This document shows positions 8,614 to 55,788 of a DNA stretch of 64,000 bases, piece after piece. This stretch comes from a virus. A model generated the notes under the pieces. The model ran no database searches and had not been told where the DNA came from. It worked only from the letters and a program-made list of their open reading frames with translations. Position 1 is the first letter of the stretch. Each line of letters opens with the position of its first letter. The position numbers and the translations under genes were made by a program. The stretch lies in the IMG/VR virus record IMGVR_UViG_3300045988_183612; one strand, given 5' to 3'.

Positions 8614-8646
8614 TTATTGTGTAAATAAATATAAAGGAGAATAATT

Positions 8647-36020: not shown

Positions 36021-36125
36021 TAATATATATAAACTTTTTTAAGAAGGAATTATAATAATAGACTTAATAGAAATTAAAAAATCATATCAAAATAAAAATA
36101 AAGCAATTTGGAGGTCAACAAAATA

Positions 36126-36992
36126 ATGATTAAACAAATTACAAAGATTATTGGAATAGTATTTGCCTTTCTTATTACTCAAATTGTATGTACATTGGGC
36201 GTATTTATTTTTAAATTGTTTTCTGATTCACAATGGTATGATAATTTATATGTATGTATAGAAACAGGTAATTTACTTTCATATAGTTATCTTAGTATGC
36301 TCAGTGAATTAATTATGCCTGCATTATTTGTTTCTGACATTATAATACTTGAGTTTGTTGTGCTTAAAGAATATAAAGTTAATAAATCAATCATATTTAT
36401 TTCAAAATTATCATTAAAAGATGTCAAGACATTTATTTTAACAGGCATTATTATGAATTTTTTAGCTTCTGTGGTAATAGATTCCTTACCTAATAATTTA
36501 GTTTCTAACTCATATAATTCTTTGATGAATGTTGCTGTAACCGGAAATTGGCTTCAAGTACTCTTAATAACAGGTGTTATTACGCCAGTTGTTGAAGAAT
36601 TAATATTTAGATACGGTATTACAAAAATAATAAAGCAAAACAAATTCTTTAAGAAACCAGATGTAAGCTCAATTTATATATCAGCTTTCGTTTTTGGATT
36701 AGTGCATTTTAATATTATTCAAAGCACTTATGCATTTATTTTCGGTATTATATTAGCCTATGTATATATAAAAACAGATAATTTATTGCCCTCTATTTTA
36801 ATTCATATTGGAGTTAATGCAAGTAGTGTATTGTATTCATTTATGCCTGTTATGTTGCAAAATATTTGTTTAATCGTAATGAGTATTATATTTTTCATAA
36901 TTGTTATAAGAAATATTTTAGTAATAAGAAATAACAATTTAAATTCTAATGTAAATAATTTTCTGTCATATCTTCTTTATCAAACAAAATAA
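36126..36992 (+). CDS. CPBP-family intramembrane metalloprotease (CAAX protease/Abi)
   Basis: Multipass membrane protein with EELIFRYGI, FGLVHF and HIGVN motifs. GGAGG RBS. Confidence 0.75.
   Translation: MIKQITKIIGIVFAFLITQIVCTLGVFIFKLFSDSQWYDNLYVCIETGNLLSYSYLSMLSELIMPALFVSDIIILEFVVLKEYKVNKSIIFISKLSLKDVKTFILTGIIMNFLASVVIDSLPNNLVSNSYNSLMNVAVTGNWLQVLLITGVITPVVEELIFRYGITKIIKQNKFFKKPDVSSIYISAFVFGLVHFNIIQSTYAFIFGIILAYVYIKTDNLLPSILIHIGVNASSVLYSFMPVMLQNICLIVMSIIFFIIVIRNILVIRNNNLNSNVNNFLSYLLYQTK
36961..36971 (+). promoter_or_regulatory. TTCTGTCATAT-family motif
   Basis: TTCTGTCATAT, 43 bp before the methyltransferase ATG 37006. It lies inside the 3' end of the CPBP gene. Confidence 0.55.
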
Positions 36993-40548: not shown

Positions 40549-41598
40549 ATGAGAATAAACAAGATTAAGACTAATGTAACAGTATTAAACAAGGTAGACC
40601 GTAAGAATTATCAGATAATTAATGTTGATGGTTCAGGTGATTCCATTAAAGGAACAGCCAAGTTAATTAAGGAGGATGGTTCACTTGATGATTCGGTTAC
40701 TGCAGTAATTACAGCTAATAATGCAATAGCTTACAAGTTGATTGATGATCCTAATATTCCAGATGTTCCAACTGGATATACTGTAGAAAACGGAATTTTG
40801 CTTAAGAATGGAGTCCCTGCTACAGAACAGGGTTCACTGGTAATTAATAGTATTATTACAGGTGTTGCAGGAAGACTTATTTTATCTGTTGAACCAAGAG
40901 AATCAAGAGAAGGTTATTTCGATATTATGTCATATACAGTTGAGTCAGATAAGTTTAATAAGCTTATCAGAAGATCTATTCCAGAAGTTACAATCATTGC
41001 TTCTTCTGAGAATAAGATGCAGTTATATATGACATATTCAAGAACTTATACTAAGGATAAGAAGCTTGAAGATGGAACTATTGAAACAGATAATATCTTT
41101 GATGCTGCAGCAATCATGTTATATGATGTAATGTCTGATGCAGTTGTTGATCATGTTTCTTTTGCGGAGCCAATTAAGGCTGTAGATTCTGTTAAGGCAC
41201 CTAATGAAACAATTTTCGCAATTGAAGCAGATACAGTAGTCGATTCTGACGGAATTATCAAGGAAGATGATTATATTACATTAAGATTTGTTGCTTCTGA
41301 AGGCCATTCATTAAGTTTTTATAAGACAACAGCAATTGACAGTGTTCCAGAATCAATTTCAAAGGGATATAACGCAAGTCTTATTAAAGCTTCTTCAGGC
41401 AAGTGGTATATTAATGATATCACATATAAGATCCCAGATAAGATAGTTGCTGAGCTTGCAGGTTATAATGTAATTGTGGATATTACATCTAAGGATCATG
41501 TTACAAGAATTTCTCTTGCTAATACAAATACTATGGAGATAAAGACTCTTGTTATTTCTGAAACAAGAGATAGAGGAGACATTATAACCATAGAGTAA
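40549..41598 (+). CDS. paralog family protein A (possible virion/structural protein)
   Basis: Shares N- and C-terminal blocks (NVTVLNKVD..., VTRISLANTN.EIK..VI.ET.DRGD) with the next gene. AAAAGGAGG RBS. Confidence 0.55.
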   Translation: MRINKIKTNVTVLNKVDRKNYQIINVDGSGDSIKGTAKLIKEDGSLDDSVTAVITANNAIAYKLIDDPNIPDVPTGYTVENGILLKNGVPATEQGSLVINSIITGVAGRLILSVEPRESREGYFDIMSYTVESDKFNKLIRRSIPEVTIIASSENKMQLYMTYSRTYTKDKKLEDGTIETDNIFDAAAIMLYDVMSDAVVDHVSFAEPIKAVDSVKAPNETIFAIEADTVVDSDGIIKEDDYITLRFVASEGHSLSFYKTTAIDSVPESISKGYNASLIKASSGKWYINDITYKIPDKIVAELAGYNVIVDITSKDHVTRISLANTNTMEIKTLVISETRDRGDIITIE

Positions 41599-41729: not shown

Positions 41730-42881
41730 ATGAGAGAAAACAAAATTTTAGAAAATGTAACAGTATTAAACAAGGTTGACAACAGACAGTATTTAATTAC
41801 ATCTGTTACCGATGGCGTAGGAACGGCTTGTCTTTTAGAAAATGGTGAAGTAAACGAGGATATATCTGTTATGATATCATCATCTAACGTAATTGCTTTT
41901 AGACTTATCAGCAATCCTAATATTCCAGATATTCCAGATGGATATTCAGTAGAAGACGGAATTTTACTTAAGGATGGTGTTGCTGCTACACAGCAGGGTT
42001 CACTGGTAATTAAGAGTATCGTTACATCTGTTCCAGGTAAGCTTTTATTAGCTGTATTGCCTAGAGAAAACACAACAGAACATGATGATTATATTGATTT
42101 ATTTGCTTATAAGCCGGATGAGGATAAGTTTAAGAAACTTATTCCAGTTTCAATTCCAATGCCGGAAGTTATAGGTGTATGTGACAAATATGTGATACTA
42201 AAGACTTCCTATACACACTTTGAAACAAAGAAGGATTGTAATGGAAAAGATATTTTCGCTGAATATTTTGATAATGCTGAAATTATCGTTTATGATGGTG
42301 CAAAGAATTATATTTCAAGTTATTTAATGCTTGACGCACCAATAAATAATGTCATTACTGTAAGAAATTCAATGAATGTACCTACATGGGTCATTGAATA
42401 TACAGAGCAGGTATGTAATAATAATTATTATAATCCTAATTGTGATTGTGGTTATGACTGCGAAAATGATTGTGGAGATTATGATGAATGCAATAATTGT
42501 GACTATCATTTAGATACAATTACTAATACTAAGGAATTAATCGAGATGGATCATATTAAAGCAGAAATGATTGCTCTTAATGGTGGTACATTAATGAGGC
42601 TCAATAGCATTAATATCCCTTCACATATTAAATCTGTTTCAATTGGTTGGAATAGTGCTGATTTTATCAGACTTGAAGACAGAATTATGATTGGAGAGTA
42701 TGTTGATAAAATCATTACTGATTCAAAGATAATGTCTGCAGTTGAAGGATATGATTGGATTGTCGATACAAGTAAGGAAGATAATGTAACAAGAATTGCT
42801 CTTGCAAACGACAATATGGAAATCAAGTATATTGTTATTACTGAAACATCAGATAGAGGAGACGTTGTTAAGGTAAAATAA
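41730..42881 (+). CDS. paralog family protein B with Cys-rich insert
   Basis: Homologous end-to-end to 40549..41598, with an inserted Cys/Asp/Asn-rich segment CNNNYYNPNCDCGYDCENDCGDYDECNNC. Confidence 0.55.
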   Translation: MRENKILENVTVLNKVDNRQYLITSVTDGVGTACLLENGEVNEDISVMISSSNVIAFRLISNPNIPDIPDGYSVEDGILLKDGVAATQQGSLVIKSIVTSVPGKLLLAVLPRENTTEHDDYIDLFAYKPDEDKFKKLIPVSIPMPEVIGVCDKYVILKTSYTHFETKKDCNGKDIFAEYFDNAEIIVYDGAKNYISSYLMLDAPINNVITVRNSMNVPTWVIEYTEQVCNNNYYNPNCDCGYDCENDCGDYDECNNCDYHLDTITNTKELIEMDHIKAEMIALNGGTLMRLNSINIPSHIKSVSIGWNSADFIRLEDRIMIGEYVDKIITDSKIMSAVEGYDWIVDTSKEDNVTRIALANDNMEIKYIVITETSDRGDVVKVK

Positions 42882-42912: not shown

Positions 42913-42950
42913 TATACACCAGTTGACTAATCTCAACTGGTGTATTTTTT
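42913..42950 (+). terminator. rho-independent terminator
   Basis: TACACCAGTTGACTAATCTCAACTGGTGTATTTTTT. Confidence 0.75.
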
Positions 42951-42959
42951 CTGTCATGT
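42949..42959 (+). promoter_or_regulatory. TTCTGTCATAT-family motif
   Basis: TTCTGTCATGT, 42 bp before the dnaE exon-1 ATG 42993. Confidence 0.6.
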
Positions 42960-42992: not shown

Positions 42993-44786
42993 ATGTCAAT
43001 GTTTGAACATGTAAAAATTGGAGAATTAACAAAAAAGGTTATTGAGTCAGGAGTTACAGTGTGTGAACATAACCATCCAGGAGGCTCTTTGTTTGATGCC
43101 GTAGATGAACCTAAACGTTATTTAGATGCTGCATTTAATGCAGGATATACTAAATTTGCTGTTACGGACCATGCATCATTTTCAGCAATGCAAACATGTA
43201 TTGATTACGCTAAGAAAATAAGTACTGAGGAACATCCATTTAATATCATTTATGGCGTAGAGGCTTATATTGAAGTGCCACCATTTAAGATAAATGAACA
43301 GATTGGCCATATGATTATGTTAGCCACTTCAGAAAGAGGCAAGCATATTATTGATAAGTTAAATTCTAAGGCTTCTGAAAAAAGAATGGGAAAGCCTGTT
43401 ATTACAATATCAGATTTAAAGAAATATAACTTTAACGGTGATATAATAGCAACTTCAGCTTGCGTTTCGGGTGCACCAGCTCTGCAATTATTATCAGATG
43501 ATGTTTTGGATAAAATGATTAACAGAGAAAGAAAAGCACAGCAGCATACTACTGAAAAAGACGAGCTAGTTATACATGATTGTATAAGTCCTGATGATAA
43601 AGAATATCTTTCAGCTAAAGATGAATTTGAAAGGGTATCGGCAGATTTAGATGAATTGATTAATATTCGTGATTCCAAGGAACTTAAATCAGAAAGAACA
43701 CAGATTTCAAGAAAATTAAGAGATGCAAGAAAGTGTTTAAATGATGATGATCCAGAGCTTATTAAACTGATTAACGAATATGAGGAGATAAATAATAAAA
43801 TTCTGGAAGCTAAAGATAAAATTCCTAATGTCAGAAAATTAGTTAATGCTAAGAAAGCCGAGTTGAAGGATATAAGTCTTAAGGTAGAGGAATACATTAA
43901 TCATGAAAATAAGATACAGCATTATGAATCATTAAAGAAAAGCCCAATAGAATTAATGTCTGAAGCAGAAAAGACAATGCTTTTTTATCAGGAAATTTTT
44001 GGAGCAGGTAATTATTACATTGAAGTTCAGAATCATGGGCTTGAAATGGAAAGCAGAACATATCCTGTGTTAGCTCAGTTAGCAAGGAAGCATAATATTC
44101 CATTAGTTGCTGCTAATGATGCACATATGGCAGATAATTCTGATAGAAGTATTGATATGCGTAATGTAGCTAAATTTTTAAGATTTATTAAGATAAGTGA
44201 GTCGGAATCAGATAAAGAGTTATATGTAAAGACACCTTATGAACTTGCTCAGGCCTTATCAGCTATATTAACAGATGATCAGGTTGCAGAAGCACTCAAT
44301 AACTTAAATGTAATTGGAAAAAGATGTGCTTATATTCCAGAAAAATCTAATCATTATCCAGTATTTGATAAGAATAAGGATTCAAACGAATTATTAAGAT
44401 CTGAAGCAATTAAGGGAATTAATTGGAGATATCCTAACGGAAAAGGATGGGATGAAGAACATCAGAAACGAATGGAATACGAACTTAATATTATCATTCA
44501 GATGGGCTTTGCCGATTATCATTTAATTGTAAAGGACTTCCTGGAATATGGAAGAATTTGTGGATTAGTACCTATGGATAAACTATCAGAAGTACCTTTA
44601 ACAATTGAAGGTGCAAAAGAGTATGTTAAGGCTCACAATTATAATACCGGAATTGGAATAGGCATTGGAAGAGGTTCAGGTGCCGGTTCATTGGTTACAT
44701 ATTTACTTGGTATTACCGGAATTGATCCATTTAAGTATAATCTGATTTTTGAACGATTCTTAAATCCAGAAAGAGTAAGTATGCCT
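42993..44786 (+). CDS. dnaE: DNA polymerase III alpha (DnaE-type) exon 1: PHP domain with coiled-coil insertion
   Basis: PHP motifs [33 protein letters not shown]...[10 protein letters not shown]. Exon ends ...[13 protein letters not shown] at the conserved DnaE SMP|DIDIDF junction. Read-through into the intron gives a spurious tail to 44834. Confidence 0.8.
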
Positions 44787-45211
44787 AAATATATTGGGCG
44801 TTCAGCGTGGACTCTAACTCAGAGGTGTGCTTAATATTTTATTATTAAGTGCTAACGGTAGAAGTTGAATAAGACTGCTATATAAAGTGTCACAACAGGA
44901 TATATAGCTTAACCCATAGACGAAGCAGCTTCGTAAGAGAACCTACGGTCCTAATATTTTTATATAAAAGATATTGAAGGATAGCAGGCGATACCGTGCT
45001 AAGATTATAAATAATATTATATAAATAAAAAATTGTTCGTATATAATATTATTTATTTTAAAGTGTAACGACTATCCTTTTTAAGGAGTACAACTGAGAA
45101 TGGTTACAGTTGGAAGTGCGTTGAAATATAATATTAATAATATTATATTGAGATATAGTCTAATCCCACTTATACAAGTGTTAAAGTACTACGAAAGTAG
45201 GGGTATATTTG
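44787..45211 (+). other. group I self-splicing intron (no ORF) in dnaE
   Basis: 5' exon ends in U and the intron ends in G. Conserved core elements AACGACTATCC (R, P7 5' strand) and GAGATATAGTCTAA (S, P7 3' strand) are in the right order. Flanking exons join into the continuous conserved DnaE sequence. Confidence 0.75.
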
Positions 45212-45967
45212 GATATCGATAGTGATCTTGCTCTTGGAGTAAGAGAAAAGACAATTGAGTATGTAAGAGCTAAATATGGTAGTGAAGCTGTTGTTGGAAT
45301 TATTACAGAATCAAGACAGCAGGCTAAAGGTGCTATCAGAGATGCTGCAAGATATTATGGAAAGAAAGCCTATGATGATGAAAAGAAATTCTTATCTTTA
45401 GGAGATCAGATTCGTAAGAAAGTGCCTGCTAAAGCAACTAATTTTGAAGATATTGTTGGCATGAAAGATACTAATAGGGTTGATGAATTAGGCATTAATA
45501 TTCAGGACAGCGTTTCTTTGTTAGATTTTTTAAAGGATGAATATAATAGTAATCCAGATGCTATTTCTATTCTTAATATTGCAGCTCATTGCGAAGGTAT
45601 GCTTACGACATACGGACAACATGCCGCAGGTGTTATTATTTATGATAGTAATGATGTTACTGATTATATTCCTATTAGAGATGGAAAAAAGGGAATTAAA
45701 ACTACAGAAATGGACATGATTCAGTGCGAAGCTAATGGATTATTAAAAATGGATTTTCTTGGATTAAAAACTCTTACAATTATTACTGACACACTCAGAA
45801 TGATTCAGAGAGATACAGGAGAAGTAATTGATGTAATGAATATTCCATTAGAGGGTCCTAAAGCTGATAAGGTATACAAAGAAGTATATGCAAAAGGAAG
45901 AACTAAGAATGTTTTCCAGTTTGAGTCAGCCGGTATGAGGAATAACCTTAAGAAGTTATGCTCATAG
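45212..45967 (+). CDS. dnaE: DNA polymerase III alpha exon 2 (palm region)
   Basis: DIDSDLALGVREKTIEYVRAKYG...AIRDAARYYG, MDFLGLKTL and VFQFESAGMRNNLKKL match the DnaE palm region. Ends in TAG-TGA, followed by a terminator. Confidence 0.8.
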   Translation, partial: DIDSDLALGVREKTIEYVRAKYGSEAVVGIITESRQQAKGAIRDAARYYGKKAYDDEKKFLSLGDQIRKKVPAKATNFEDIVGMKDTNRVDELGINIQDSVSLLDFLKDEYNSNPDAISILNIAAHCEGMLTTYGQHAAGVIIYDSNDVTDYIPIRDGKKGIKTTEMDMIQCEANGLLKMDFLGLKTLTIITDTLRMIQRDTGEVIDVMNIPLEGPKADKVYKEVYAKGRTKNVFQFESAGMRNNLKKLCS

Positions 45968-45996
45968 TGAATAGTTAATTGAATATTTTGTATTAA

Positions 45997-46026
45997 AACG
46001 CATGTCATTATGATGTGCGTTTTTTC
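45997..46026 (+). terminator. rho-independent terminator after dnaE exon 2
   Basis: ACGCATGTCATTATGATGTGCGTTTTTT (stem includes G-U pairs). Confidence 0.6.
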
Positions 46027-46034
46027 TGTCATAT
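46024..46034 (+). promoter_or_regulatory. TTCTGTCATAT-family motif
   Basis: TTCTGTCATAT, 46 bp before ATG 46072. Confidence 0.6.
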
Positions 46035-46071
46035 TTCTTTTAAATTATAATAAATAAAGGAGAACAATATT

Positions 46072-46308
46072 ATGGAGAAAAATAATAAAACTCTTATGCA
46101 ACGGTTTATTGAGGCTGGATATTCTGCAAAAGATATATTTCACCATGAATCAGATTTATATGTATTTGTCACACCAATTACTACTAGAGTTATTAATGAA
46201 TGGTGTAAGGAAACAGGATTTGATAAGGATTGGCATTGCCCTATATTCACAGATCAGATAACTGAGAAACAAATGTATGATTGTGCATTCCAATACTATA
46301 CTGAATAA
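46072..46308 (+). CDS. hypothetical protein (78 aa)
   Basis: AAAGGAGAAC RBS, motif at 46024. Confidence 0.5.
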   Translation: MEKNNKTLMQRFIEAGYSAKDIFHHESDLYVFVTPITTRVINEWCKETGFDKDWHCPIFTDQITEKQMYDCAFQYYTE

Positions 46309-46335
46309 AAATAAATAAAGTTTAAGGAGAAAAAT

Positions 46336-46968
46336 ATGGCAATATTTCATGAACATTTACAATACCATCCAGACACAGTAGAGAAACATAAAATTACAGA
46401 TAAAGAAATCAAATTTTTGTCTGATTTGCAGCATGAATTAAATACACAGGACCATGTAGGACAAGCTGATCCTCGATTTTGGGTTATTATGGGAAAAGAA
46501 AAGTGTATTGTTCCAGAAGGATATGAAGACGGTGTAACATTAATAGATAATGAGGCAGTCGAAGAAATTGCTGATAATATTGATGATGCAATTGTATTTT
46601 TTAATAAGGAATTTGAAGAAAACGGTGATGCTTGGGTTATTTCAAAAGAATATGATGGATATTATGTTACATCAAAAGAAGATAATGATTACGAGGAATG
46701 TTTAGCTGATCTTGATGATTTAAAGACTTGGTTGAATGAGCATAATTATGGCAGATATACTTTCACCTGTTATGCATATAGAGATAAAATTTATGAAAAC
46801 ACAATGTTTTTAACAGAAAAGGCAGCCGCTGAACATCTAAAGGCAAATCGTTATCATTACGATGAGTACGCTCATACCTATGCTATGACTGCATGGAGAA
46901 GTCCTGAAGTAGAAGATATCATTAAGATTTTACAGTCAGTAGATTTTTCTGCTATTGTTAGAAAATAA
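46336..46968 (+). CDS. acidic hypothetical protein
   Basis: AAGGAG RBS. Confidence 0.5.
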   Translation: MAIFHEHLQYHPDTVEKHKITDKEIKFLSDLQHELNTQDHVGQADPRFWVIMGKEKCIVPEGYEDGVTLIDNEAVEEIADNIDDAIVFFNKEFEENGDAWVISKEYDGYYVTSKEDNDYEECLADLDDLKTWLNEHNYGRYTFTCYAYRDKIYENTMFLTEKAAAEHLKANRYHYDEYAHTYAMTAWRSPEVEDIIKILQSVDFSAIVRK

Positions 46969-46980
46969 AAGAATGATATT

Positions 46981-47034
46981 ATCGCAATTAAGCAAAAAAC
47001 CCCAACCGACAATAGCCGGTTGTGGGTAGTTCAA
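46981..47034 (+). repeat. 55-bp structured intergenic repeat, copy 5
   Basis: ATCGCAATTAAGCAAAAAACCCCAACCGACAATAGCCGGTTGTGGGTAGTTCA, in the leader of the nucleotidyltransferase gene. Base changes in the stem are partly compensatory. Confidence 0.7.
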
Positions 47035-47056
47035 TTACAAGGATAGGAAAGAGAAT

Positions 47057-48046
47057 ATGATAAATAAAAATATATTAAATATGCCTGAGTATTCATTTTT
47101 AAAGGAAAATCAAAATTTAGATAAGAATATTTGTATACTTGGATTAGGTGGTAGCAGAGCATATGGGACAAATCTTCCAGAAAGCGATATTGATATAAGA
47201 GGAGTTGCTGTTAGAAGAAAAGAAGATATCTTGTTAGGTAATGATTTTGAAAATTTTGTAGATGTTAATACAGATACAACTATTTATAGTTTTGACAAAA
47301 TTATTGAATTATTAACTAAATGCAATCCAAATACTATTGAATTTTTAGGATTAGATGCAGATGATTATATTTATAAAAATGAAATTGGGGAATTATTATT
47401 AAAAAATAAAGATATTTTTTTATCAAATAGATGTATCAATACATTTAGTGAATATGCATTGCAACAGTTATATCGTATGCAGCAGAAGACCAATGCTGCT
47501 TTAACGGAAAAAGAATTAAATAGACACATTTCTGGAGTGCTTAATAATATGTCCAAGAAAATGAATGATAAGTACAATTTAGATGAAAATAATGTGTCTT
47601 TTTATTTGGTTGATGGCAAAATCAAATGTAATATTATTGCAACACAGTGTTCAATGGAAGATTTGTCAGGAATGCTTTCAGAATTTAATAACACTTTAAG
47701 AGATTACCGGAAAACAAGTAAAAGGAATGAACATGCATTAAATCATGGTAAAATAGCAAAACATAGTATGCATTTACTTAGATTATATATGATGGGAATT
47801 GATTTAGTTTCTGAAGGGAAAATTCAAACGAAAAGAATTAAAGAACATGATTTGTTGATGGACATTAGAAATGGTGTATATCTTGATGAAAATGGAATCC
47901 CTAATAAACATTTTTTCAAAATAGTAGATGAATACAAGAATAAGTTTGAAAATGCATGTAAAAACTCTGTATTGCCAGATGAGCCGGATATAGACAAAAT
48001 CAATAAATTTAGAATGGAAATCAATGAGAAAATTGTAAAGTTATAA
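47057..48046 (+). CDS. Pol-beta superfamily nucleotidyltransferase (GS...DxD motif)
   Basis: LGLGGSRAYGTNLPESDIDIRG is a G[GS]x9-13[DE]h[DE]h nucleotidyltransferase signature. The 329-aa size is compatible with the MNT-like or CD-NTase-like classes. Preceded by 55-bp repeat copy 5. Confidence 0.55.
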   Translation: MINKNILNMPEYSFLKENQNLDKNICILGLGGSRAYGTNLPESDIDIRGVAVRRKEDILLGNDFENFVDVNTDTTIYSFDKIIELLTKCNPNTIEFLGLDADDYIYKNEIGELLLKNKDIFLSNRCINTFSEYALQQLYRMQQKTNAALTEKELNRHISGVLNNMSKKMNDKYNLDENNVSFYLVDGKIKCNIIATQCSMEDLSGMLSEFNNTLRDYRKTSKRNEHALNHGKIAKHSMHLLRLYMMGIDLVSEGKIQTKRIKEHDLLMDIRNGVYLDENGIPNKHFFKIVDEYKNKFENACKNSVLPDEPDIDKINKFRMEINEKIVKL

Positions 48047-48051
48047 AATTA

Positions 48052-48079
48052 AACTGGTTACTATTAGTAGCCAGTTTTT
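48052..48079 (+). terminator. rho-independent terminator
   Basis: AACTGGTTACTATTAGTAGCCAGTTTTTTT. Confidence 0.65.
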
Positions 48080-48085
48080 TTATTT

Positions 48086-48096
48086 TTCTGTCATTG
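48086..48096 (+). promoter_or_regulatory. TTCTGTCATAT-family motif
   Basis: TTCTGTCATTG, 43 bp before ATG 48131. Confidence 0.55.
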
Positions 48097-48130
48097 TATT
48101 ATTATAAAATTTAAAAAGGAGAATAAAATT

Positions 48131-48589
48131 ATGAAAACTAATGCATTTGAAATTAAGGAAAACAACTTAGAAACAGTAAATGATATGATAGAGGCACTAT
48201 TGGAAGTGCCTAAGAATTATTTACTGCATCCATTAGGACAGAAATGCGCAATTGCAGTTGATAATTACCATAAATGTGTATATTTAGACGATCCTAATAT
48301 GATGAGCGAGTTTAAATATGAATTAGAAGAAGATATAAAAGAAAATGATGATTGGGATGGAGAAATCCCTGACGACAGTGATAGCCTTGAAAGATTTTCA
48401 TTTTATTATGTTTGGATAGGATATGAGTCAGATTGCGGAGACAATTCAGGAGAATATTCATATTTTTTAAATGAGGATATGGCAAATGATTTCTTTGAAT
48501 CTTCTAAAAATACTGATAAAACATTAGGAACTGCTTCATTTATAAACGGCAGATTAGAACCTGTTAAAGTTATAAAAAGTACATTGTAA
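48131..48589 (+). CDS. acidic hypothetical protein
   Basis: AAAAGGAG RBS, motif at 48086. Confidence 0.5.
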   Translation: MKTNAFEIKENNLETVNDMIEALLEVPKNYLLHPLGQKCAIAVDNYHKCVYLDDPNMMSEFKYELEEDIKENDDWDGEIPDDSDSLERFSFYYVWIGYESDCGDNSGEYSYFLNEDMANDFFESSKNTDKTLGTASFINGRLEPVKVIKSTL

Positions 48590-48604
48590 AAAGAAAGGAA
48601 TTTT

Positions 48605-48874
48605 ATGAAAACTTTAAATATTATAAATAACTTTATTAAAACTTCAGAATCAGAAACAGAAAATAATATGTTGAATATCATTAAAAATACTTTAATAAAT
48701 GAGATTTCAGAAGCTTCTAAAGAAGTTTCTGAGGCGAGTTGGTTGACTGAAAGTACATATGATGACGATGGATATTCTAACGATGATGGCGAGGAAGTTA
48801 TTTATGCAGATACAGCAGTTAATATAATTGAAAGCGTCATATATGATAATTCTGATGAAAATAATAACAACTAA
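48605..48874 (+). CDS. acidic hypothetical protein
   Basis: AAGGAA RBS. Confidence 0.45.
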   Translation: MKTLNIINNFIKTSESETENNMLNIIKNTLINEISEASKEVSEASWLTESTYDDDGYSNDDGEEVIYADTAVNIIESVIYDNSDENNNN

Positions 48875-48886
48875 GGAGAATAAATA

Positions 48887-49144
48887 ATGATAATAATAAG
48901 AAATGGTAAGGAAATAAAATTAACAGATGATGAGATTTATAAGGCTCATAAGGAATTTGTTTCAACATGGATGATTAATACAGCTAAAGAAATTATTCAG
49001 CCTCAGTATCATTCTGATATTACTGAGAATGATTATATTGATATTGGTGAAGCAGCTTATGATACTTACGCAGAAGGTAATGGACTTACTGAATATGAAG
49101 CTGTTGAAGATGCTGTGGAAAAATTCTTAAGTGAAAGAAATTGA
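48887..49144 (+). CDS. hypothetical protein
   Basis: AAGGAG RBS. Confidence 0.45.
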   Translation: MIIIRNGKEIKLTDDEIYKAHKEFVSTWMINTAKEIIQPQYHSDITENDYIDIGEAAYDTYAEGNGLTEYEAVEDAVEKFLSERN

Positions 49145-49205
49145 ATATTTTTCATAACTGAATAAGATTTTTTGAAAGCGGGAGACTTATGTTTTCTGCT
49201 TTTTT

Positions 49206-49216
49206 TTCTGTCATAA
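49206..49216 (+). promoter_or_regulatory. TTCTGTCATAT-family motif
   Basis: TTCTGTCATAA, 40 bp before the flap-exonuclease ATG 49248. Confidence 0.6.
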
Positions 49217-49247
49217 ATATATTAAAAATTATAAAGGAGAAAAATTA

Positions 49248-50129
49248 ATGAAAAATATTATGATTTTTGATGGGAATTACATTCTCAGAAGATCTTTTTA
49301 CGGTGTTCCAGAATTAAAAACCTCAAAGGGATTTCCGACTAATGCAATTAAAGGAGCTTTAAATACAATTCTATATATGAAAGAAAAGTATAGTCCTGAT
49401 GAATTAATTGTTGCATTTGATACTGCAAAGCCAACTTTCAGGCATTTAATGTATAATGGGTACAAGGCAACTAGAGATCCTGCACCGGAAGAATTTAAGA
49501 TTCAGAGACAGGCTATTGTCCCTATTCTTAAAACAATGAATATATGTGTTATTGAAAAAGAAGGATATGAAGCAGATGATATTATAGGGACAATTTCAAC
49601 TATTGAAAGTAAAGCAGGTAATAAAGTAAATATCATATCTGCGGATCATGATTTGTTGCAATTATGTAATGATTTAGTATCATTAATTGTTCCAAACAAC
49701 CCGGAAGATATTTGGACTCCGGCAGAAATTATGAATGAATATTCCGTTACTCCTAAACAGTTTATTGATGTAAAAGCATTAATGGGAGATAAATCGGATA
49801 ATATTCCTGGAGCTGCAGGTATTGGACCTAAAACTGCAAGTAAACTAATACATAAGTATGGAAATTTGTTTAACATATATATGAATATTTCAGATATTGA
49901 ATCTAATATGTCTAAAGGAAAAAGTATTTCAACTTGTTTGATAAATAGTGAAGATAATATTTTGTTGTCAAAAATTTTAGCAACAATAAAAACAGATGTA
50001 GAACTTGATGCTTATAACGCTAATGTATCAGATAATATGTTAAATGAAATTAGTGAGCAGATATTAGGTTTGTATGAACTTAACAGTATTATAAGTATAC
50101 TTAAAAATGGTAACATTGTTTGCCTATAA
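49248..50129 (+). CDS. 5'-3' exonuclease / flap endonuclease (Pol I N-terminal domain family)
   Basis: MIFDGNYILRRSFYG, FDTAKPTFRHLMYNGYKATR, EADDIIGT, SADHDLLQL and the H3TH motif LMGDKSDNIPGAAGIGPKTASKLI. Confidence 0.9.
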   Translation: MKNIMIFDGNYILRRSFYGVPELKTSKGFPTNAIKGALNTILYMKEKYSPDELIVAFDTAKPTFRHLMYNGYKATRDPAPEEFKIQRQAIVPILKTMNICVIEKEGYEADDIIGTISTIESKAGNKVNIISADHDLLQLCNDLVSLIVPNNPEDIWTPAEIMNEYSVTPKQFIDVKALMGDKSDNIPGAAGIGPKTASKLIHKYGNLFNIYMNISDIESNMSKGKSISTCLINSEDNILLSKILATIKTDVELDAYNANVSDNMLNEISEQILGLYELNSIISILKNGNIVCL

Positions 50130-50257
50130 TTATATTTAAGGAGAAAATCATGATAATTGAAATTTTAACAAATGGTTAGTGTAATATTAAATTCGAAAAG
50201 ACAAATTGTAGAGTAAACGCTTCATATTTAACCGATGTCCAAAATGACTTATTAAAT

Positions 50258-50566
50258 ATGTGCATTAATTATTATAACAATAATACGGCATCCTGTTATT
50301 TTGATTCTGAAGGCTCTACAGCAACGCTAGTTTTGACACCGGATACAGCTTTCATAATTCATGAATGGGAGCATTTAGGCTTAATTAAACTATTGGAATT
50401 ACCAAAGGAAATCATTGATTGTATAGTAAAGGAAATTGTAAAACAAATTGATTCTGTTGCAAGTTTTTTATCATGTGAATGTGATGATTTATTTCAGTAT
50501 GAAAAAAGAAAATCTGAATTAATACAAAAATTATATTTTGTACATGATAAGAGTAATTCAAATTAA
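50258..50566 (+). CDS. hypothetical protein (possibly 50150..50566 with an in-frame TAG)
   Basis: ATG at 50258 has a weak RBS. A strong AAGGAGAAAATCATG at 50150 is in the same frame but hits a TAG at 50175. Confidence 0.4.
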   Translation: MCINYYNNNTASCYFDSEGSTATLVLTPDTAFIIHEWEHLGLIKLLELPKEIIDCIVKEIVKQIDSVASFLSCECDDLFQYEKRKSELIQKLYFVHDKSNSN

Positions 50567-50617
50567 AACAAATGCTTAATAACAAGTACCCATTAATAGG
50601 TACTTGTTATTTTATTT

Positions 50618-50628
50618 TTCTGTCATTT
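50618..50628 (+). promoter_or_regulatory. TTCTGTCATAT-family motif
   Basis: TTCTGTCATTT, 46 bp before ATG 50666. Confidence 0.55.
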
Positions 50629-50665
50629 ATTTATTATAACAATAAATGGAAGGAGAGTAAAAAAT

Positions 50666-51247
50666 ATGATTAAAGAATTTAAGGAATTAGTAAATGCAAT
50701 AAATTCGCCAGATAATGAATATAGAGAGAATGATTTAGATATGTTAAATTACAATATGGCCGCATTTGGAGAATATGTACAGATTGTTTATCATCAAAAC
50801 TATTCAACTCCAATTAAATATGCTACACTTGAGGGAGAAGAATTACGAGAAGCTATTCAGTCTATGGATAAAAATCGGAGAATTAAACATGAAGCTGCAA
50901 TAGCTGCGTGTTCCCAAATCAATAGAGATTGTGAATATTATAATGTTCCTAAGTTTTGCCCTGAAACAACTGATAGACATATAATCGCAGATTTTTGCGC
51001 TCAGGTAACGGCTGCTTTTTATCTTGACGGAATCGGTAGAGATGCTAAAACTATAGATGATGTTATAAAGGCAATGACTCAAAATTGTAAAAGTGTTAAT
51101 ATTAGTAATATAACAAACAATATTGACACAAATGAACTATCAGATATTGATTTAGATTTAGGCGGAGAAGATGATGAAGATAAAATTATGCCAGATGTAA
51201 TTCATACTGAAATTAATAAAGATAACAGAGAGGAAGAAGTAAGATAA
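50666..51247 (+). CDS. hypothetical protein
   Basis: GGAAGGAG RBS, motif at 50618. Confidence 0.5.
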   Translation: MIKEFKELVNAINSPDNEYRENDLDMLNYNMAAFGEYVQIVYHQNYSTPIKYATLEGEELREAIQSMDKNRRIKHEAAIAACSQINRDCEYYNVPKFCPETTDRHIIADFCAQVTAAFYLDGIGRDAKTIDDVIKAMTQNCKSVNISNITNNIDTNELSDIDLDLGGEDDEDKIMPDVIHTEINKDNREEEVR

Positions 51248-51552
51248 TGGTAACTTTTATTAGAACATATGAATCCGGTCCATGGATAATAGATGAATAC
51301 GATAATAAAACATATAGAATTCTATTAAGAAGAGATTTAAGAACAGGTAAAGTCATAAGATTCTTTTTTACTCCAAAGATTCCATATTATGATATTGAAA
51401 TTAAAACCATAAAAGATGATTTTTATATTAGTATTACTGGTAATGTTTCATATGATATTAATGATATTGATAAATTAAAAGGCAGAATAGATTATGCTAA
51501 AAATTTGATAACTTATATAAAAGAAAATATATGTAACAAGTATTCTTTTTAA
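51247..51552 (+). CDS. hypothetical protein
   Basis: ATAATGG overlap with the upstream gene (translational coupling). Confidence 0.45.
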   Translation: MVTFIRTYESGPWIIDEYDNKTYRILLRRDLRTGKVIRFFFTPKIPYYDIEIKTIKDDFYISITGNVSYDINDIDKLKGRIDYAKNLITYIKENICNKYSF

Positions 51553-51561
51553 TATTCATGC

Positions 51562-51588
51562 AAGCGTCCAAAATTGGACGCTTTTTTT
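51562..51588 (+). terminator. rho-independent terminator before the DnaE C-terminal piece
   Basis: AAGCGTCCAAAATTGGACGCTTTTTTT. Confidence 0.75.
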
Positions 51589-51592
51589 AATT

Positions 51593-51603
51593 TTCTGTCA
51601 TAA
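51593..51603 (+). promoter_or_regulatory. TTCTGTCATAT-family motif
   Basis: TTCTGTCATAA, 44 bp before ATG 51639 of the DnaE C-terminal piece. Confidence 0.6.
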
Positions 51604-51638
51604 ATTATATAGTTATGAATTGAAAGGAGAAATTTAAA

Positions 51639-53324
51639 ATGAATAAAACAGGTATTGAAGATTTAATAGCAATGAATGCTTTATATCGTCCTGGTCCTGA
51701 AAAGTTTATACCTGATTTCATAGAAGGTAAAAAGGATGCATCTAAGATTAAATATTTATGTCCTCAATTAGAGCCAATTTTGTCAACTACTTATGGACAG
51801 ATAGTTTATCAGGAACAGGTAATGCAGATTGTTCGTGATTTAGCAGGATATACATGGGGGCGTTCTGATTTAGTCCGTAGAGCTATGTCAAAAAAACATC
51901 AGGATGAAATTGATGCTGAAAGACACACTTTTGTATATGGCAATGCTGATACTAAAAAAGAAAATGAAGCATTAGTACCAGGTTGTATTTCAAATGGAAT
52001 ACCAGAAGAAATTGCTCATAAAATCTGGGATGCGATGGTTGATTTTGCTAAGTATGCTTTTAATAAGTCACATGCCTCTGCTTATGCTGTTACATCATAT
52101 TGGACTGCTTTTCTTAAGTATTATTATCCGGCTTATTATCTTACAAATGTAATAAATCATACTGATAAGATTGATGAAGTCGCTGATGATATTAGTGATG
52201 CTCTTGATTTTGGAGTAAAGGTATTGCCTCCGGACATTAATGCTTCAAATTTACATTGTGATGTTGTAGATGGAAATATTTTGTATGGTCTGAGTAATAT
52301 TAAGAATGTTGGAGCAGAAGCAGCTAAAATTATTGAAGATAGAAATGTTAATGGAGAATATTCTGATATTAAGGATTTTATCAAACGAACAAATATTAAT
52401 GCAGAAGCATTAAGTTCCTTAATTAAAGCAGGTGCTTTTGATTGCCTTGGTTATACAAGAACAATGATATCATTAGATATGATTTGTATGAAAGAAATTC
52501 AGGATACAATCAAGAAAATCAGAGAGAAGAGTAAGTTTATTGAAAACGCAAGTAAAGTTATTGAATTTGTGGAAGATTATATTGATCTTGATGAGTTTAA
52601 GGAAAAAATTTCAGAAGAAAATATTTCCTTTCAAGTTACTTCAAAAAAGATGCCAACTAAGGATTCCATAATTAAACGTATCAATTCAGCTAAGACAGTT
52701 ATAGAAAGCTTAGAAGATGATCTTGAAAATATAGATATTGATTATGTAGAAGATGATTTAGGTCAGATTCTAAATGATGAAAAAGAAGTGTTAGGTGTTT
52801 ATATTACAGGGCATCCAATTGATGAGTATAATATTTATACAGATCCCATTTCTGATATTTCAACAGAAGTTAATGATGTATCTGGTATAATTAAAAATCT
52901 TGTTATAAGAAAGGACAGAAATGGATACGAATGGGTAACTTTTGAGGTAGAAGATAAAACAGGTTCTATTAATGGTGTATGTTTTTCTAAGGATTATGCA
53001 AATATTAGAGACTTACTTGTTAATGATGCTAAATTATGTTTATCAGGGAAAATTCAAGTAGATGATTTTAGATCTTCAGATGACGAAACTGTATATCAGA
53101 TTATTGTTAAATCTGTTAAACCTTTAAAGAAAAATAAGTCTTCATATAGATTTATTTGTACTGTTTCCGAAGTAAACGATGTTCTTGATTCTATTAATGA
53201 ATATCTGGTGGACGTTGATGGAGATTATTTATATTGGCTTGATTCAACAACTGGAATTGAACATTTATGTAAGAAATTCATTAACCCTGATATGTCAGCC
53301 CCTTCAATAGTACGCAAATGCTAA
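51639..53324 (+). CDS. dnaE: DNA polymerase III alpha C-terminal piece (fingers, HhH, OB) as a separate ORF
   Basis: ALYRPGP and NKSHASAYAVTSYWTAFLKYYYP are DnaE motifs. Has its own motif (51593), AAAGGAGA RBS and ATG. The N-terminus abuts the end of exon 2 in the DnaE alignment. Confidence 0.8.
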   Translation: MNKTGIEDLIAMNALYRPGPEKFIPDFIEGKKDASKIKYLCPQLEPILSTTYGQIVYQEQVMQIVRDLAGYTWGRSDLVRRAMSKKHQDEIDAERHTFVYGNADTKKENEALVPGCISNGIPEEIAHKIWDAMVDFAKYAFNKSHASAYAVTSYWTAFLKYYYPAYYLTNVINHTDKIDEVADDISDALDFGVKVLPPDINASNLHCDVVDGNILYGLSNIKNVGAEAAKIIEDRNVNGEYSDIKDFIKRTNINAEALSSLIKAGAFDCLGYTRTMISLDMICMKEIQDTIKKIREKSKFIENASKVIEFVEDYIDLDEFKEKISEENISFQVTSKKMPTKDSIIKRINSAKTVIESLEDDLENIDIDYVEDDLGQILNDEKEVLGVYITGHPIDEYNIYTDPISDISTEVNDVSGIIKNLVIRKDRNGYEWVTFEVEDKTGSINGVCFSKDYANIRDLLVNDAKLCLSGKIQVDDFRSSDDETVYQIIVKSVKPLKKNKSSYRFICTVSEVNDVLDSINEYLVDVDGDYLYWLDSTTGIEHLCKKFINPDMSAPSIVRKC

Positions 53325-53345: not shown

Positions 53346-53375
53346 TACCGCTGTTTATTGCAGCGGTATTTTTTT
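53346..53375 (+). terminator. rho-independent terminator
   Basis: TACCGCTGTTTATTGCAGCGGTATTTTTTT. Confidence 0.75.
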
Positions 53376-53436: not shown

Positions 53437-54348
53437 ATGATACTTAGTAACAACAACAGTAATATTAAGGAATTAAGAAATAAAAAAAATAAGCATGATT
53501 TAAATTCTTATATGGATTTTATGGCAAAAAACAAAATGAAAAGTAATTCTTTCTTTTCAAAATCAAAACAGTATATAAAGATTTTTATTCCATTTATTAT
53601 TTCTGTTTTTATAATTTTATTTTCTATGTTTATTGCAACATTTATAGACAGTCTATTAAATATGTATATGAATGATGCAGGAGGAATTTCAACTAAAATA
53701 GATTATGAAGGATTTCGATTAATTTACACAATATCAACATATACATTAATGTTTGTTATGTGCATTATTTGTATAAAAAGCTCATTTTACAATTATAAAA
53801 AAGATTTGTTTATGAAAAATAAATTAGTAGTAAATTGGAATTTTGTATTTTGTTTCATATTAACTTCTGTAATATTGCAGCTTATTTCAGGAATTCAAAT
53901 GCATTTTGTAAATGTATCAAATATTGATTATGGAAGTTTAGGAATAAAAACAATTATATCTACAATAATAGCAACTTTTGTGGCACCTATTATTGAGGAA
54001 TTGACTTTTAGATATATAATTTATGGCTATGCATATAAAGCAAGCAACAATAAATTATGTGCAAATATAATCCAAGCAGTTTTATTTGGAATAATTCATT
54101 TTAATTTTATTTTATTCCCTATATATGCTTTTGGCGGATATTTGTTAGGTGCTGTAAGAGATAAATATGGTATTAAACTTAGCAGCTTATATCATATTCT
54201 AATAAACTGTGTGGCATTAATACCATTTACGTTTTTTATAACAAATATATATTTACAGGTATGCATTTTAATAGTCTGCATAATGAGTTTAATTTATTTT
54301 GTAATTAAGTGTTTTGAAAATATCAATATAGAAATTAAGGAGCAATAA
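53437..54348 (+). CDS. CPBP-family intramembrane metalloprotease (second copy)
   Basis: IEELTFRYIIYG, FGIIHF. Multipass membrane protein. GGAGG RBS. Confidence 0.75.
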   Translation: MILSNNNSNIKELRNKKNKHDLNSYMDFMAKNKMKSNSFFSKSKQYIKIFIPFIISVFIILFSMFIATFIDSLLNMYMNDAGGISTKIDYEGFRLIYTISTYTLMFVMCIICIKSSFYNYKKDLFMKNKLVVNWNFVFCFILTSVILQLISGIQMHFVNVSNIDYGSLGIKTIISTIIATFVAPIIEELTFRYIIYGYAYKASNNKLCANIIQAVLFGIIHFNFILFPIYAFGGYLLGAVRDKYGIKLSSLYHILINCVALIPFTFFITNIYLQVCILIVCIMSLIYFVIKCFENINIEIKEQ

Positions 54349-54759: not shown

Positions 54760-55788
54760 ATGGCAGATAAGAATTTATTATTAAATAAAAAAAACAATAA
54801 AGATGAATATGTTGATGAATTATTTGATACAAATAAACCAATAGAAAACATAAATATTTTATCAGAGGATAATTATACCGATATTTTAAATGATAAAGAG
54901 ATTTTAAATGAAAAAGAGAAACTATTATTAGAAAATAATATAACTTATTATATTAAATCATTCGCTGATTATCCGGTTTTATCCAAAGATGAAACTCTTA
55001 AATTATTTGAAGAGATAAAAAAACATCCTAAAAAGAAAAAAGAAATAACCGAAAAATTGATTTTATCTAATATGCGTTTAGTCATCAGTATTGCTAAAGC
55101 CGTTACAGCTAAAACGCAAAGTTTTGAAATGGATGATTTATGTCAGGCCGGTATTTTCGGATTATACAGAGCTATACAAATGTTTGATTATAAATTAGGA
55201 TATGCATTTTCAACTTATGCAACTCATTGGATTAGACAGAGTATATATAGAGAATTAGCCAATTATGATTTATTAGTTAGATTCCCTGTACATGTAAGAG
55301 AACAGGATTCTTTTGTTAAGACTACATTTGTGGATTTAACTAATAAACTTCAAAGAAAACCTACAATTGATGAATTATATGATGTAGTAAAACAAAGATA
55401 TCCTCTTTTAACTAAAGAAATGCTTGTACATATTCAGAGCTTTAATGAATTGGTTTCATTAGATGCACCTATTCAAAGTGATGAAGGCCATGACGATTCG
55501 TGTTTGGCTGATTATATAGAAGCTCCTGAACCTAAAGTTGAAGATACGATTATTCAAAAAGAAATGAATGAACTGCTTTGGAAAGAAGTTGAAGATTGTC
55601 TCACTCCTAGAGAATTATATGTAATTAAGAGTAGAATGGGATATGGTTCAAAGGTTAAAACTTTAAAAGATATAGGTACTGAATGGAATGTTTCCAGAGA
55701 ACGAATCAGACAAATTGAATCAAAAGCAATAAAAAAGATTAGAGTTCGTTTCAGACGGAAAGGATATAGTATACAATCTTTTATGTAA
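54760..55788 (+). CDS. sigma-70 family RNA polymerase sigma factor
   Basis: Region 2 ILSNMRLVISIAKAV and FSTYATHWIRQSIYRELAN. Region 3 RFPVHVREQD...KPTIDEL. Region 4 LTPRELYVIKSRMGYG..KTLKDIGTEWNVSRERIRQIESKAIKKIR. Confidence 0.85.
   Translation: MADKNLLLNKKNNKDEYVDELFDTNKPIENINILSEDNYTDILNDKEILNEKEKLLLENNITYYIKSFADYPVLSKDETLKLFEEIKKHPKKKKEITEKLILSNMRLVISIAKAVTAKTQSFEMDDLCQAGIFGLYRAIQMFDYKLGYAFSTYATHWIRQSIYRELANYDLLVRFPVHVREQDSFVKTTFVDLTNKLQRKPTIDELYDVVKQRYPLLTKEMLVHIQSFNELVSLDAPIQSDEGHDDSCLADYIEAPEPKVEDTIIQKEMNELLWKEVEDCLTPRELYVIKSRMGYGSKVKTLKDIGTEWNVSRERIRQIESKAIKKIRVRFRRKGYSIQSFM

Follow-up and report, generated by a model that had tools for sequence, protein, structure and literature searches.

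A dnaE locus in two parts

We analysed the locus at 42,993 to 53,324 of a 64-kb stretch of metagenomic DNA (IMG/VR virus record IMGVR_UViG_3300045988_183612), which is referred to as the window at its full length. The window derives from a mobile, phage- or plasmid-like element of about 100 kb, found in the gut and associated with Lachnospiraceae. It has a G+C content of about 28%, and in the stretches surveyed nearly all substantial open reading frames (ORFs) lie on the plus strand. The locus encodes a DnaE-type DNA polymerase, which belongs to the C family and corresponds to the α subunit of DNA polymerase III (Pol III α), in two genes that are 5.7 kb apart, and their products probably form one enzyme. 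In the following, piece A is 42993-44787, piece B is 45212-45964 and piece C is 51639-53324, and N denotes the spliced product of A and B. Related loci and contigs carry labels beginning with L, and related proteins labels beginning with P. The features of the two genes are as follows.

42914-42945 and 42949-42958, plus strand: terminator-like hairpin followed by the promoter-like motif TTCTGTCATG, upstream of the N gene (terminator scan, motif search)
42993-44787, plus strand: DnaE-N exon 1, 598 codons, encoding PHP and the beginning of the polymerase core (ORF list, Pfam PHP and DNA_pol3_alpha, tblastn)
43503-43952, plus strand: charged insertion of about 150 amino acids, N residues 171-320, located close to the C-terminus of PHP
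44788-45211, plus strand: ORF-less group I intron of 424 nucleotides (nt), assigned from its sequence, an intron-less allele and phage homologues
45212-45970, plus strand: DnaE-N exon 2, 251 codons, with DIDSD, KMDFLGL, the thumb and the first part of the fingers
45996-46025 and 46024-46033, plus strand: hairpin and T-run downstream of the N gene, overlapping the promoter-like motif TTCTGTCATA, which is that of the first operon in the gap
51562-51583, 51593-51602 and 51623-51629, plus strand: expression signals of the C gene, namely a terminator hairpin, the promoter-like motif TTCTGTCATA and the ribosome-binding site (RBS) AAAGGAG
51639-53324, plus strand: DnaE-C gene, 561 amino acids, with the rest of the fingers, HhH, a helical insertion, the OB fold and the C-terminal tail
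53346-53368, plus strand: terminator after the C gene (terminator scan)

The ORF that contains exon 1 (42993-44834) encodes DnaE up to nucleotide 44787 and non-DnaE sequence from there to its stop codon, and exon 2 starts with DIDSDL. Splicing gives an N protein of 849 amino acids, which carries no name in the current annotation. Its PHP domain was found by Pfam (PF02811) at residues 26-175 (E = 1e-18), with the HxH motif (HNH) at residue 26. In the palm, MPDIDSD (exon junction) and KMDFLGL (residue 777) both line up with their counterparts in solved DnaE structures. N is composed of PHP, palm, thumb and the start of the fingers. The highly charged insertion of about 150 residues within PHP, a putative coiled coil proposed for 43500-43950 in an initial annotation made from the sequence alone, is real: the Pfam PHP match ends at residue 175, and tblastn matches in relatives skip residues 172-321. 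It is missing from bacterial DnaE and, based on the occupancy of each alignment block, occurs in nearly every member of the mobile-element clade, whether split or unsplit, and is therefore older than the split.

Piece C starts with MNKTGIEDLIAMNALYRPGP and is recorded in protein families PF17657, PF14579 and PF01336, although NCBI names it only as an OB-fold nucleic acid binding protein. Using phmmer, its residues 5-281 and 377-473 aligned with residues 686-959 and 998-1106 of Taq alpha. The fingers part holds the RRAMSKK and FNKSHA motifs, with FNKSH at residue 141, and R80/R81 of RRAMSKK align with Taq R766/R767. The domain order of fingers, HhH and OB is that of DnaE, with the OB fold at the C-terminal side and not at the N-terminal side as in PolC. 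Relative to Taq and E. coli alpha, a helical insertion of about 95 residues lies between the HhH region and the OB fold (window 52480-52770, C residues ~282-376); it was modelled confidently as long helices, and it is in this region that E. coli alpha has the usual internal clamp-binding motif. Judged from these alignments, N and C together would amount to a complete DnaE-type (C-family, Pol III alpha) polymerase. C accounts for 40% of the protein, and not for a C-terminal third as first described.

The break itself could be placed to the residue. The last DnaE residues of piece B are ...FQFESAGMRNNLKKL, and its tail reads ...FESAGMRNNLKKL-CS, in which CS are two extra residues, followed by the tandem stop codons TAG-TGA (45965-45970). 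The initial annotation had given the two stops and a terminator for this end and had left out CS; the hairpin at 45996-46025 was read from the sequence by eye and was not flagged by the terminator scanner. When aligned to PDB sequences with phmmer, B249 matched residue 623 of E. coli alpha and C6 matched residue 628, and in M. tuberculosis DnaE1 (5lew) B248 matched residue 644 and C1 residue 645, which puts the break at E. coli alpha residues 623/624. In about 75 unsplit IMG/VR relatives the match to C directly follows the match to B, at an offset of -3 nt and without loss of a residue, therefore only the initiator Met of C is extra. The proposal that C continues DnaE at exactly the next residue is thus borne out by both comparisons. 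All sequence features were found where they had been placed, including the terminator, promoter-like motif, strong RBS and ATG of the C gene.

We also modelled B and C as an artificially fused chain with AlphaFold2. A single-sequence run was unusable, with a predicted local distance difference test score (pLDDT) of 33, and was replaced by a run with a 114-sequence alignment, which gave a pLDDT of 93.4 and a predicted template modelling score (pTM) of 0.86. In this model, helices 240-249 and 254-263 are connected by a loop of four residues, NKTG (250-253), and the break falls there. A Foldseek search with the fused model returned DnaE structures as the best matches (7pu7, 2hpi, 3e0d, 4iqj, 5fku and 2hnh, E 1e-44 to 1e-30), with PolC at approximately 1e-13. 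If the fingers of E. coli alpha are taken to span residues 561-911, a domain limit that we assume here, the cut falls about 60 residues into the fingers. The polymerase had initially been described as two polypeptides, PHP and palm versus fingers, HhH and OB; the two polypeptides stand, but not the boundary, since the cut is inside the fingers and N also includes the thumb.

Conservation of the break

The clusters of N and C contain 251 and 203 member sequences, respectively, from ENA, Logan and NCBI. Stand-alone C proteins, with 41-99% identity, all start a few residues before IEDxIAMNALYRPGP, and stand-alone N proteins, with 47-99% identity, end in ...LKxL plus 2-4 variable residues, the tails seen being CS, FA, FAQN, FS, LN, LEV and MK. 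On contigs that are long enough, the N and C halves occur together and on the same strand, and the intervening DNA differs, as listed below.

L089: gap of 0.8 kb with an ADP-ribosyltransferase and a 32-amino-acid ORF
L081: gap of 2.0 kb with an exonuclease, DUF3232 and a 107-amino-acid ORF
L099: gap of 3.9 kb with AAA_5 and CobT_C-like genes
L094: gap of 4.0 kb with eight ORFs, including an exonuclease
Window and L001: gap of 5.7 kb with ten ORFs
L083/L091 (one 110.6-kb contig): gap of 18.4 kb with many genes, some on the opposite strand

The IMG/VR contig L001 is 98-99% identical and has the same layout as the window. Against this contig, the ratio of nonsynonymous to synonymous substitution rates (dN/dS) was 0.026 for A, 0.15 for B and 0.07 for C, with no internal stop codons, and against L081 dN was 0.19-0.28 with dS saturated. 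Both halves are under purifying selection.

A second DnaE break, about 32 residues downstream of the first, was found in L097 (9780-10010 of the ENA contig NODE_90_length_182548) and also in L098. Here N ends with ...RPGPLDSIPEYIEGALKARAN and C starts with MIFKETDQD.... The halves in L097 are separated by only 89 nt, which hold a terminator hairpin, a related promoter-like motif and an RBS, and no intervening gene.

In a tree of the N proteins, built by neighbour-joining only, the proteins broken at ...LKxL form one clade. P0261 and P0263, which are N-only proteins that end about 25-30 residues later, are at the base of this clade or just outside it. The unsplit DnaE P0247 (1,403 amino acids, L093 6001-10212) is nested inside the clade, and its junction, LKEL-LHDGKGS-IEDII, has three residues more than the canonical LKxL-xPxx-IED and resembles an N tail fused to a C leader. 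The nesting and the long junction together suggest that P0247 is a secondary re-fusion. Continuous ORFs, which the initial annotation had named as the finding that would speak against a split, thus occur only in distant relatives (no more than 55% identity), one of which has this re-fused appearance.

Several stand-alone C proteins (P0012, P0016-P0018, P0021, P0022, P0026 and P0030) have an extra N-terminal leader of 45-85 amino acids before the IEDxIAMN helix, for example MEINKKILTAAEILYSSGLTAKEALNSPD...; such leaders might help docking to the N chain.

Gap genes, intron and surrounding element

The gap (45968-51638) contains ten ORFs, nine of which have a clear Shine-Dalgarno sequence, and all ten are intact, with dN/dS below 0.35 against L001 except for two very short ones. 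The ten genes had been described as independently promoted, but the positions of motifs and terminators give about four units, of 3, 3, 2 and 2 genes.

46072-48046, plus strand: unit 1, ORFs of 78 amino acids (no match), 210 amino acids (46336-46968, phrog_3205, unknown function) and 329 amino acids (47057-48046, nucleotidyltransferase)
48131-49144, plus strand: unit 2, small acidic ORFs of 152, 89 and 85 amino acids without a family match; terminators at 48051 and 49174, motif at 48086
49248-50566, plus strand: unit 3, 5'-3' flap exonuclease of 293 amino acids (49248-50129) and a 102-amino-acid ORF
50666-51552, plus strand: unit 4, DUF3232 protein of 193 amino acids (50666-51247) and a 101-amino-acid ORF

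Pfam and PHROGs confirmed the nucleotidyltransferase and the flap exonuclease that had been recognised in the gap: the former is a RlaP / pol-beta-type enzyme (phrog_388) and the latter matches 5_3_exonuc_N, 5_3_exonuc and phrog_107. Apart from the DUF3232 and phrog_3205 proteins, the remaining gap ORFs had no family match in these two databases, and the 102-amino-acid ORF of unit 3 is the one with no obvious Shine-Dalgarno sequence. A DUF3232 gene and an ORF of about 107 amino acids precede the C gene in L081 as well, and an exonuclease lies between the halves in both L081 and L094. Because of this shared content, the set of exonuclease, DUF3232 and small ORF may be the older occupant of the gap, to which 46072-49144 may have been added later.

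The promoter-like motif consists of a T-run followed by TTCTGTCATA. Allowing one mismatch, it occurs 60 times in the window versus 9 expected, and there are 36 strict copies on the plus strand (e.g. at 42949, 46024, 48086, 49206, 50618, 51593, 53398 and 57022). For 20 of the 36 a Shine-Dalgarno sequence and start codon were detected, with the motif 42-64 nt, mostly 42-51 nt, upstream of the start, and it often follows directly after a terminator hairpin. The N and C genes share the motif with other genes of the element. It is unlike the sigma-70 consensus, and a scan for that consensus was uninformative in this AT-rich DNA (75 sites versus 78 expected). The motif may be read by the element's own sigma factor, encoded at 54760-55788.

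The interruption between A and B is, by its sequence features and comparison with relatives, a group I intron. Inspection of the sequence revealed a P1 helix in which exon AUGCCU pairs with the internal guide GGGCGU (intron positions 10-15) and the 5' splice site is marked by a U.G pair; the final intron base (position 45211) is G. Exact removal of the intron restores the reading frame, and a natural intron-less allele exists: P0241, whose cluster comprises 251 sequences, has 849 amino acids, of which 841 are identical to N, and reads ...RVSMPDIDSDL... across the junction, as predicted for the spliced product. Alleles that bear an endonuclease exist as well. L001 has the same intron with a 515-nt insertion at window position 45028 (L001 2869-3382), which encodes an HNH endonuclease, and L087, an 80% relative, carries an HNH_3 ORF inside the intron (L087 6966-7484), whereas the intron is absent from L081 and L094. 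Segments at the ends and in the core of the intron have 69-79% identity to intervening sequences of Staphylococcus, Bacillus, Enterococcus and S. thermophilus phages, in which group I introns are known, and the folding z-score of the intron was -3.3. Nevertheless, Rfam 15 gave no match to 44788-45211, either at the gathering score or at E values up to 10. Covariance-model scans can thus miss introns of this type, and since Rfam fails to detect a well-supported intron here, its silence elsewhere is weak evidence when taken alone.

In the Mammaliicoccus phage phi127, which is SPbeta-like, the gene for a DnaE-like polymerase is interrupted by a homologous element at the same codon before the catalytic D-x-D, and the intron ends are 72% similar. 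The phi127 copy carries a GIY-YIG-like endonuclease ORF, whereas the copy in the window is ORF-less and those in L001 and L087 carry HNH ORFs; an optional homing-endonuclease ORF is a trait that the two introns share. The codon that precedes D-x-D is also interrupted in the unrelated elements L025, L027, L043 and L073, by 452, 1064, 1320 and 273 nt, respectively, and in L090 (2501-3488). Judged from these sequences, the codon looks like a recurrent homing site in DnaE.

The polymerase is surrounded by a replication and recombination module with two UvrD-type helicases, RecJ, a RecA/UvsX-like protein, a primase-like protein and the sigma factor, and this gene context fits a role as the replicase of the element. 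No virion genes were found among the window ORFs scanned, and in relatives (L083, L085) ParA and Rep3 adjoin DnaE-C, so that the element may be a plasmid or phage-plasmid. A megablast search with the 10.5-kb region against INPHARED phages gave no match. The relatives of the C protein found by tblastn in INPHARED have no more than 40% identity and are all unsplit or unannotated, and PLSDB contained none above 60% identity, with the matches listed at 31-38%. A scan of GTDB species representatives returned almost only chromosomal DnaE of Clostridia (no more than 41% identity), plus two short contigs of metagenome-assembled genomes at 49-55%.

Directly upstream of DnaE-N are two tandem paralogous genes (40549-41598, 349 amino acids, and 41730-42881, 383 amino acids). 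Their products are alike at the N- and C-termini, the second has a Cys/Asp/Asn-rich insertion (…NPNCDCGYDCENDCGDYDECNNCDY…), and neither matches Pfam or PHROGs. The cargo at 4217-10980, 31224-32798, 36108-36992 and 53437-54348 is unusual for a contig catalogued as viral. It comprises a PARP-domain protein, an HD domain protein of the HD-GYP type, a GGDEF diguanylate cyclase, a flotillin/SPFH protein, a class A penicillin-binding protein with transglycosylase and transpeptidase domains, and two Rce1-like CPBP proteases.

A probable polymerase of two chains, and known systems

We consider it likely that the locus specifies a two-gene, two-chain DnaE polymerase, assembled non-covalently and with a composite active site. 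N and C would be made from independently transcribed and translated genes. Once the putative self-splicing group I intron is removed, the N gene would give a chain of 849 amino acids with PHP and its clade-specific 150-residue insertion, the palm with three catalytic aspartates, the thumb and the first ~60 residues of the fingers. The C gene, 5.7 kb downstream and with its own terminator, promoter-like motif and RBS, would supply a chain of 561 amino acids with the remaining fingers, including the RRAM arginine motif, HhH, the OB fold and the tail. The position of the cut, in a 4-residue loop between two fingers helices, makes non-covalent fragment complementation likely, in which the fingers segment of N would pack on the fingers of C. 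Since the aspartates (DIDSD, KMDFLGL) are in N and RRAMSKK is in C, the resulting single active site would be formed from both chains, and neither chain should polymerise alone. As to its origin, the fingers loop may first have been interrupted by a terminator/promoter module or by a gene cassette, and the break would since then have been a site of gene gain and loss.

Several points weigh against this interpretation. The binding of the two chains to each other is deduced from sequence and from a model of the fused chain, and the nucleotide contact of C R80/R81 is presumed from their equivalents R766/R767, which contact the incoming nucleotide in the Taq ternary complex. The promoter-like motif is a statistical enrichment only. 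The enzyme may serve as a repair or accessory polymerase instead of as the replicase, and the ~100-kb element may encode another polymerase outside the 64 kb of the window. Finally, unsplit relatives exist at 47-55% identity, so members of this clade can function without the split.

An alternative that we regard as unlikely is that the two proteins have separate jobs. For instance, N might serve as a distributive polymerase or as a PHP exonuclease, and C might bind DNA or the clamp on its own, perhaps together with the host replisome. Both pieces are stable units whose domains can be recognised, the NCBI name of C refers to nucleic acid binding by an OB fold only, and some C proteins have N-terminal leaders of 45-70 amino acids. 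In addition, the halves can be as much as 18.4 kb apart with different neighbours, and C lies beside Rep3/ParA in L083 and L085. Yet the cut is not at a domain boundary but in a short inter-helix loop within one folded domain, and the residues that flank it have stayed as conserved as in unsplit DnaE. Moreover, N and C co-occur wherever this could be checked (the window, L001, L081, L089, L094, L097, L099 and L083/L091), and one lineage has apparently re-fused the halves in frame.

It is very improbable that the two halves are rejoined, either by a large or trans-splicing group I or group II intron across the gap or by split-intein ligation. In its favour, a genuine group I intron interrupts the same gene 750 nt upstream, cyanobacterial DnaE is rejoined by a split intein, and the G of the ATG before the N-K-T-G codons could formally be the G that ends an intron. 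An N-intein of about 100 amino acids, starting with Cys or Ser, was not found, since only CS lies between the last DnaE residue and TAG-TGA, nor was a C-intein (about 35 amino acids with Asn as its last residue and Cys, Ser or Thr next), since C consists of Met and then the DnaE sequence NKTGIEDL.... Among relatives, the N tails are 2-4 variable residues and the C leaders vary, with no conserved Asn-Cys/Ser/Thr. With respect to introns, an Rfam search of 45900-51720 at permissive thresholds gave no intron-family match, and one of the whole window at gathering scores gave none either, although Rfam misses the genuine upstream intron as well. In L081 and L094 the next gene begins 15-17 nt past the stop codon of N, where a 5' intron half would not fit, and the 18.4 kb that separates the halves in one relative includes genes on the opposite strand. 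A terminator, the motif, an RBS and an ATG belong to the C gene itself, and there are terminators at both borders of the gap, the upstream one being read from the sequence. The early view that there is no intein arrangement and that the gap is not an intron agrees with these findings.

We give equally little credence to excision of the gap block from the DNA during the life cycle, which would restore dnaE as happens with the B. subtilis skin element in sigK. Short related sequences, TTTTCTGTCATA, flank the block at 46022-46033 and 51591-51602. The flanking motif, however, is present in 36-60 copies across the window, upstream of genes, versus 9 expected, and resembles a promoter and not an attachment-site pair; a search across the gap for attachment-site-like repeats returned only this recurrent motif. 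If the motif copies recombined, the halves would not be joined in frame, none of the ten gap ORFs was identified as a recombinase, and the intervening DNA is wholly different between relatives. Stop-codon recoding was dropped, since ORFs end normally in TAA, TAG and TGA and read-through cannot span 5.7 kb. That the split is not biological at all, but a mis-assembly or a decaying pseudogene freshly hit by a mobile insertion, is barely credible: a 5.7-kb block inside an essential-looking gene, in a metagenome-derived window with no cultured relative, no close INPHARED match and no C protein above 60% in PLSDB, might raise this suspicion, but the same layout recurs in independent assemblies from IMG/VR, ENA, Logan and NCBI, is conserved down to 41% identity, has clean stop, RBS and start signals at the break, and shows dN/dS values of 0.03-0.15 without internal stops.

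Returning to the two-chain polymerase, a stronger version would be that the loop at the start of the fingers is a selected, reversible break point and not a tolerated accident. We find this doubtful. The two neighbouring break sites, one of which has a terminator-promoter module only, and the one apparent re-fusion are compatible with it and are no proof. If true, this would be an obligate two-chain C-family replicase whose active site exists only when both products are present, the element could regulate its replication through when, or in what ratio, the C subunit is made, or C subunits could be exchanged, and cargo genes, among them those for the flap exonuclease, the nucleotidyltransferase and the ADP-ribosyltransferase, would have a protected place in the gap.

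If the chains do reconstitute the enzyme, the locus offers a natural position, tested by evolution, at which a replicative polymerase of the C family can be split, and would imply that the fingers of Pol III alpha can assemble in trans. This would give a handle on how the fingers close over the nucleotide, and on the engineering of intein-free split or conditionally assembled DnaE. In terms of evolution, it would be a case, seen in many related elements, of an essential replication gene that was broken by cassette insertion and long kept broken, with cargo gained and lost, and that was perhaps re-fused. For annotation, genome-quality and pseudogene checks would misread the halves.

A full-length DnaE encoded by two distant genes and cut in the fingers region is known from cyanobacteria (Synechocystis, Nostoc), where the products of dnaE-n and dnaE-c each carry an intein fragment and are ligated by protein trans-splicing. 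The cyanobacterial cut is at a different site, next to FNKSH, which in our case is inside C at residue 141. Unlike in cyanobacteria, there are no intein fragments here, and the enzyme would have to work as two chains. Intein-free splits are known for family-B polymerases, namely gp43A/gp43B of some T4-like Aeromonas phages and the two-subunit PolB of Methanothermobacter thermautotrophicus. These are likewise made as two polypeptides, which associate non-covalently, and the phage cases also concern genomes of mobile elements, but they differ in family and fold (B versus C here) and in the position of the split. An engineered Pfu polymerase, split near the finger tip (PMC3061061), shows that family B enzymes can tolerate a cut at the fingers.

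The nearest case that the literature search gave is the minimal Pol III alpha of T4-like jumbo phages. It was predicted to be encoded by two genes far apart (Iyer et al. 2021, PMC7824862), so that there, too, a C-family catalytic module would be rebuilt from two stand-alone proteins. That minimal form has only the nucleotidyltransferase and template-binding subdomains and lacks PHP, HhH and OB, it accompanies a family-B replicase, and it was interpreted as ancestral (PMC7824862). In contrast, the polymerase described here is a complete, host-like DnaE with a total of ~1,410 amino acids that would have been cut secondarily at a loop. The 'fractured genes' of Dassa et al. 2009, in which split-intein halves flank a free-standing homing-endonuclease gene (PMC2677866), resemble our case in that a replication gene of an uncultured phage-like element is present as two ORFs with genes between them, but neither split-intein halves nor an endonuclease gene is found at the break between B and C. 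In the literature searched, the coverage of which was incomplete so that an earlier description may exist, we came across no full-length DnaE that is split without an intein, and split DnaE is not mentioned in a 2026 survey of bacterial polymerases. Split polymerases as such are already known, and the present case extends this theme.

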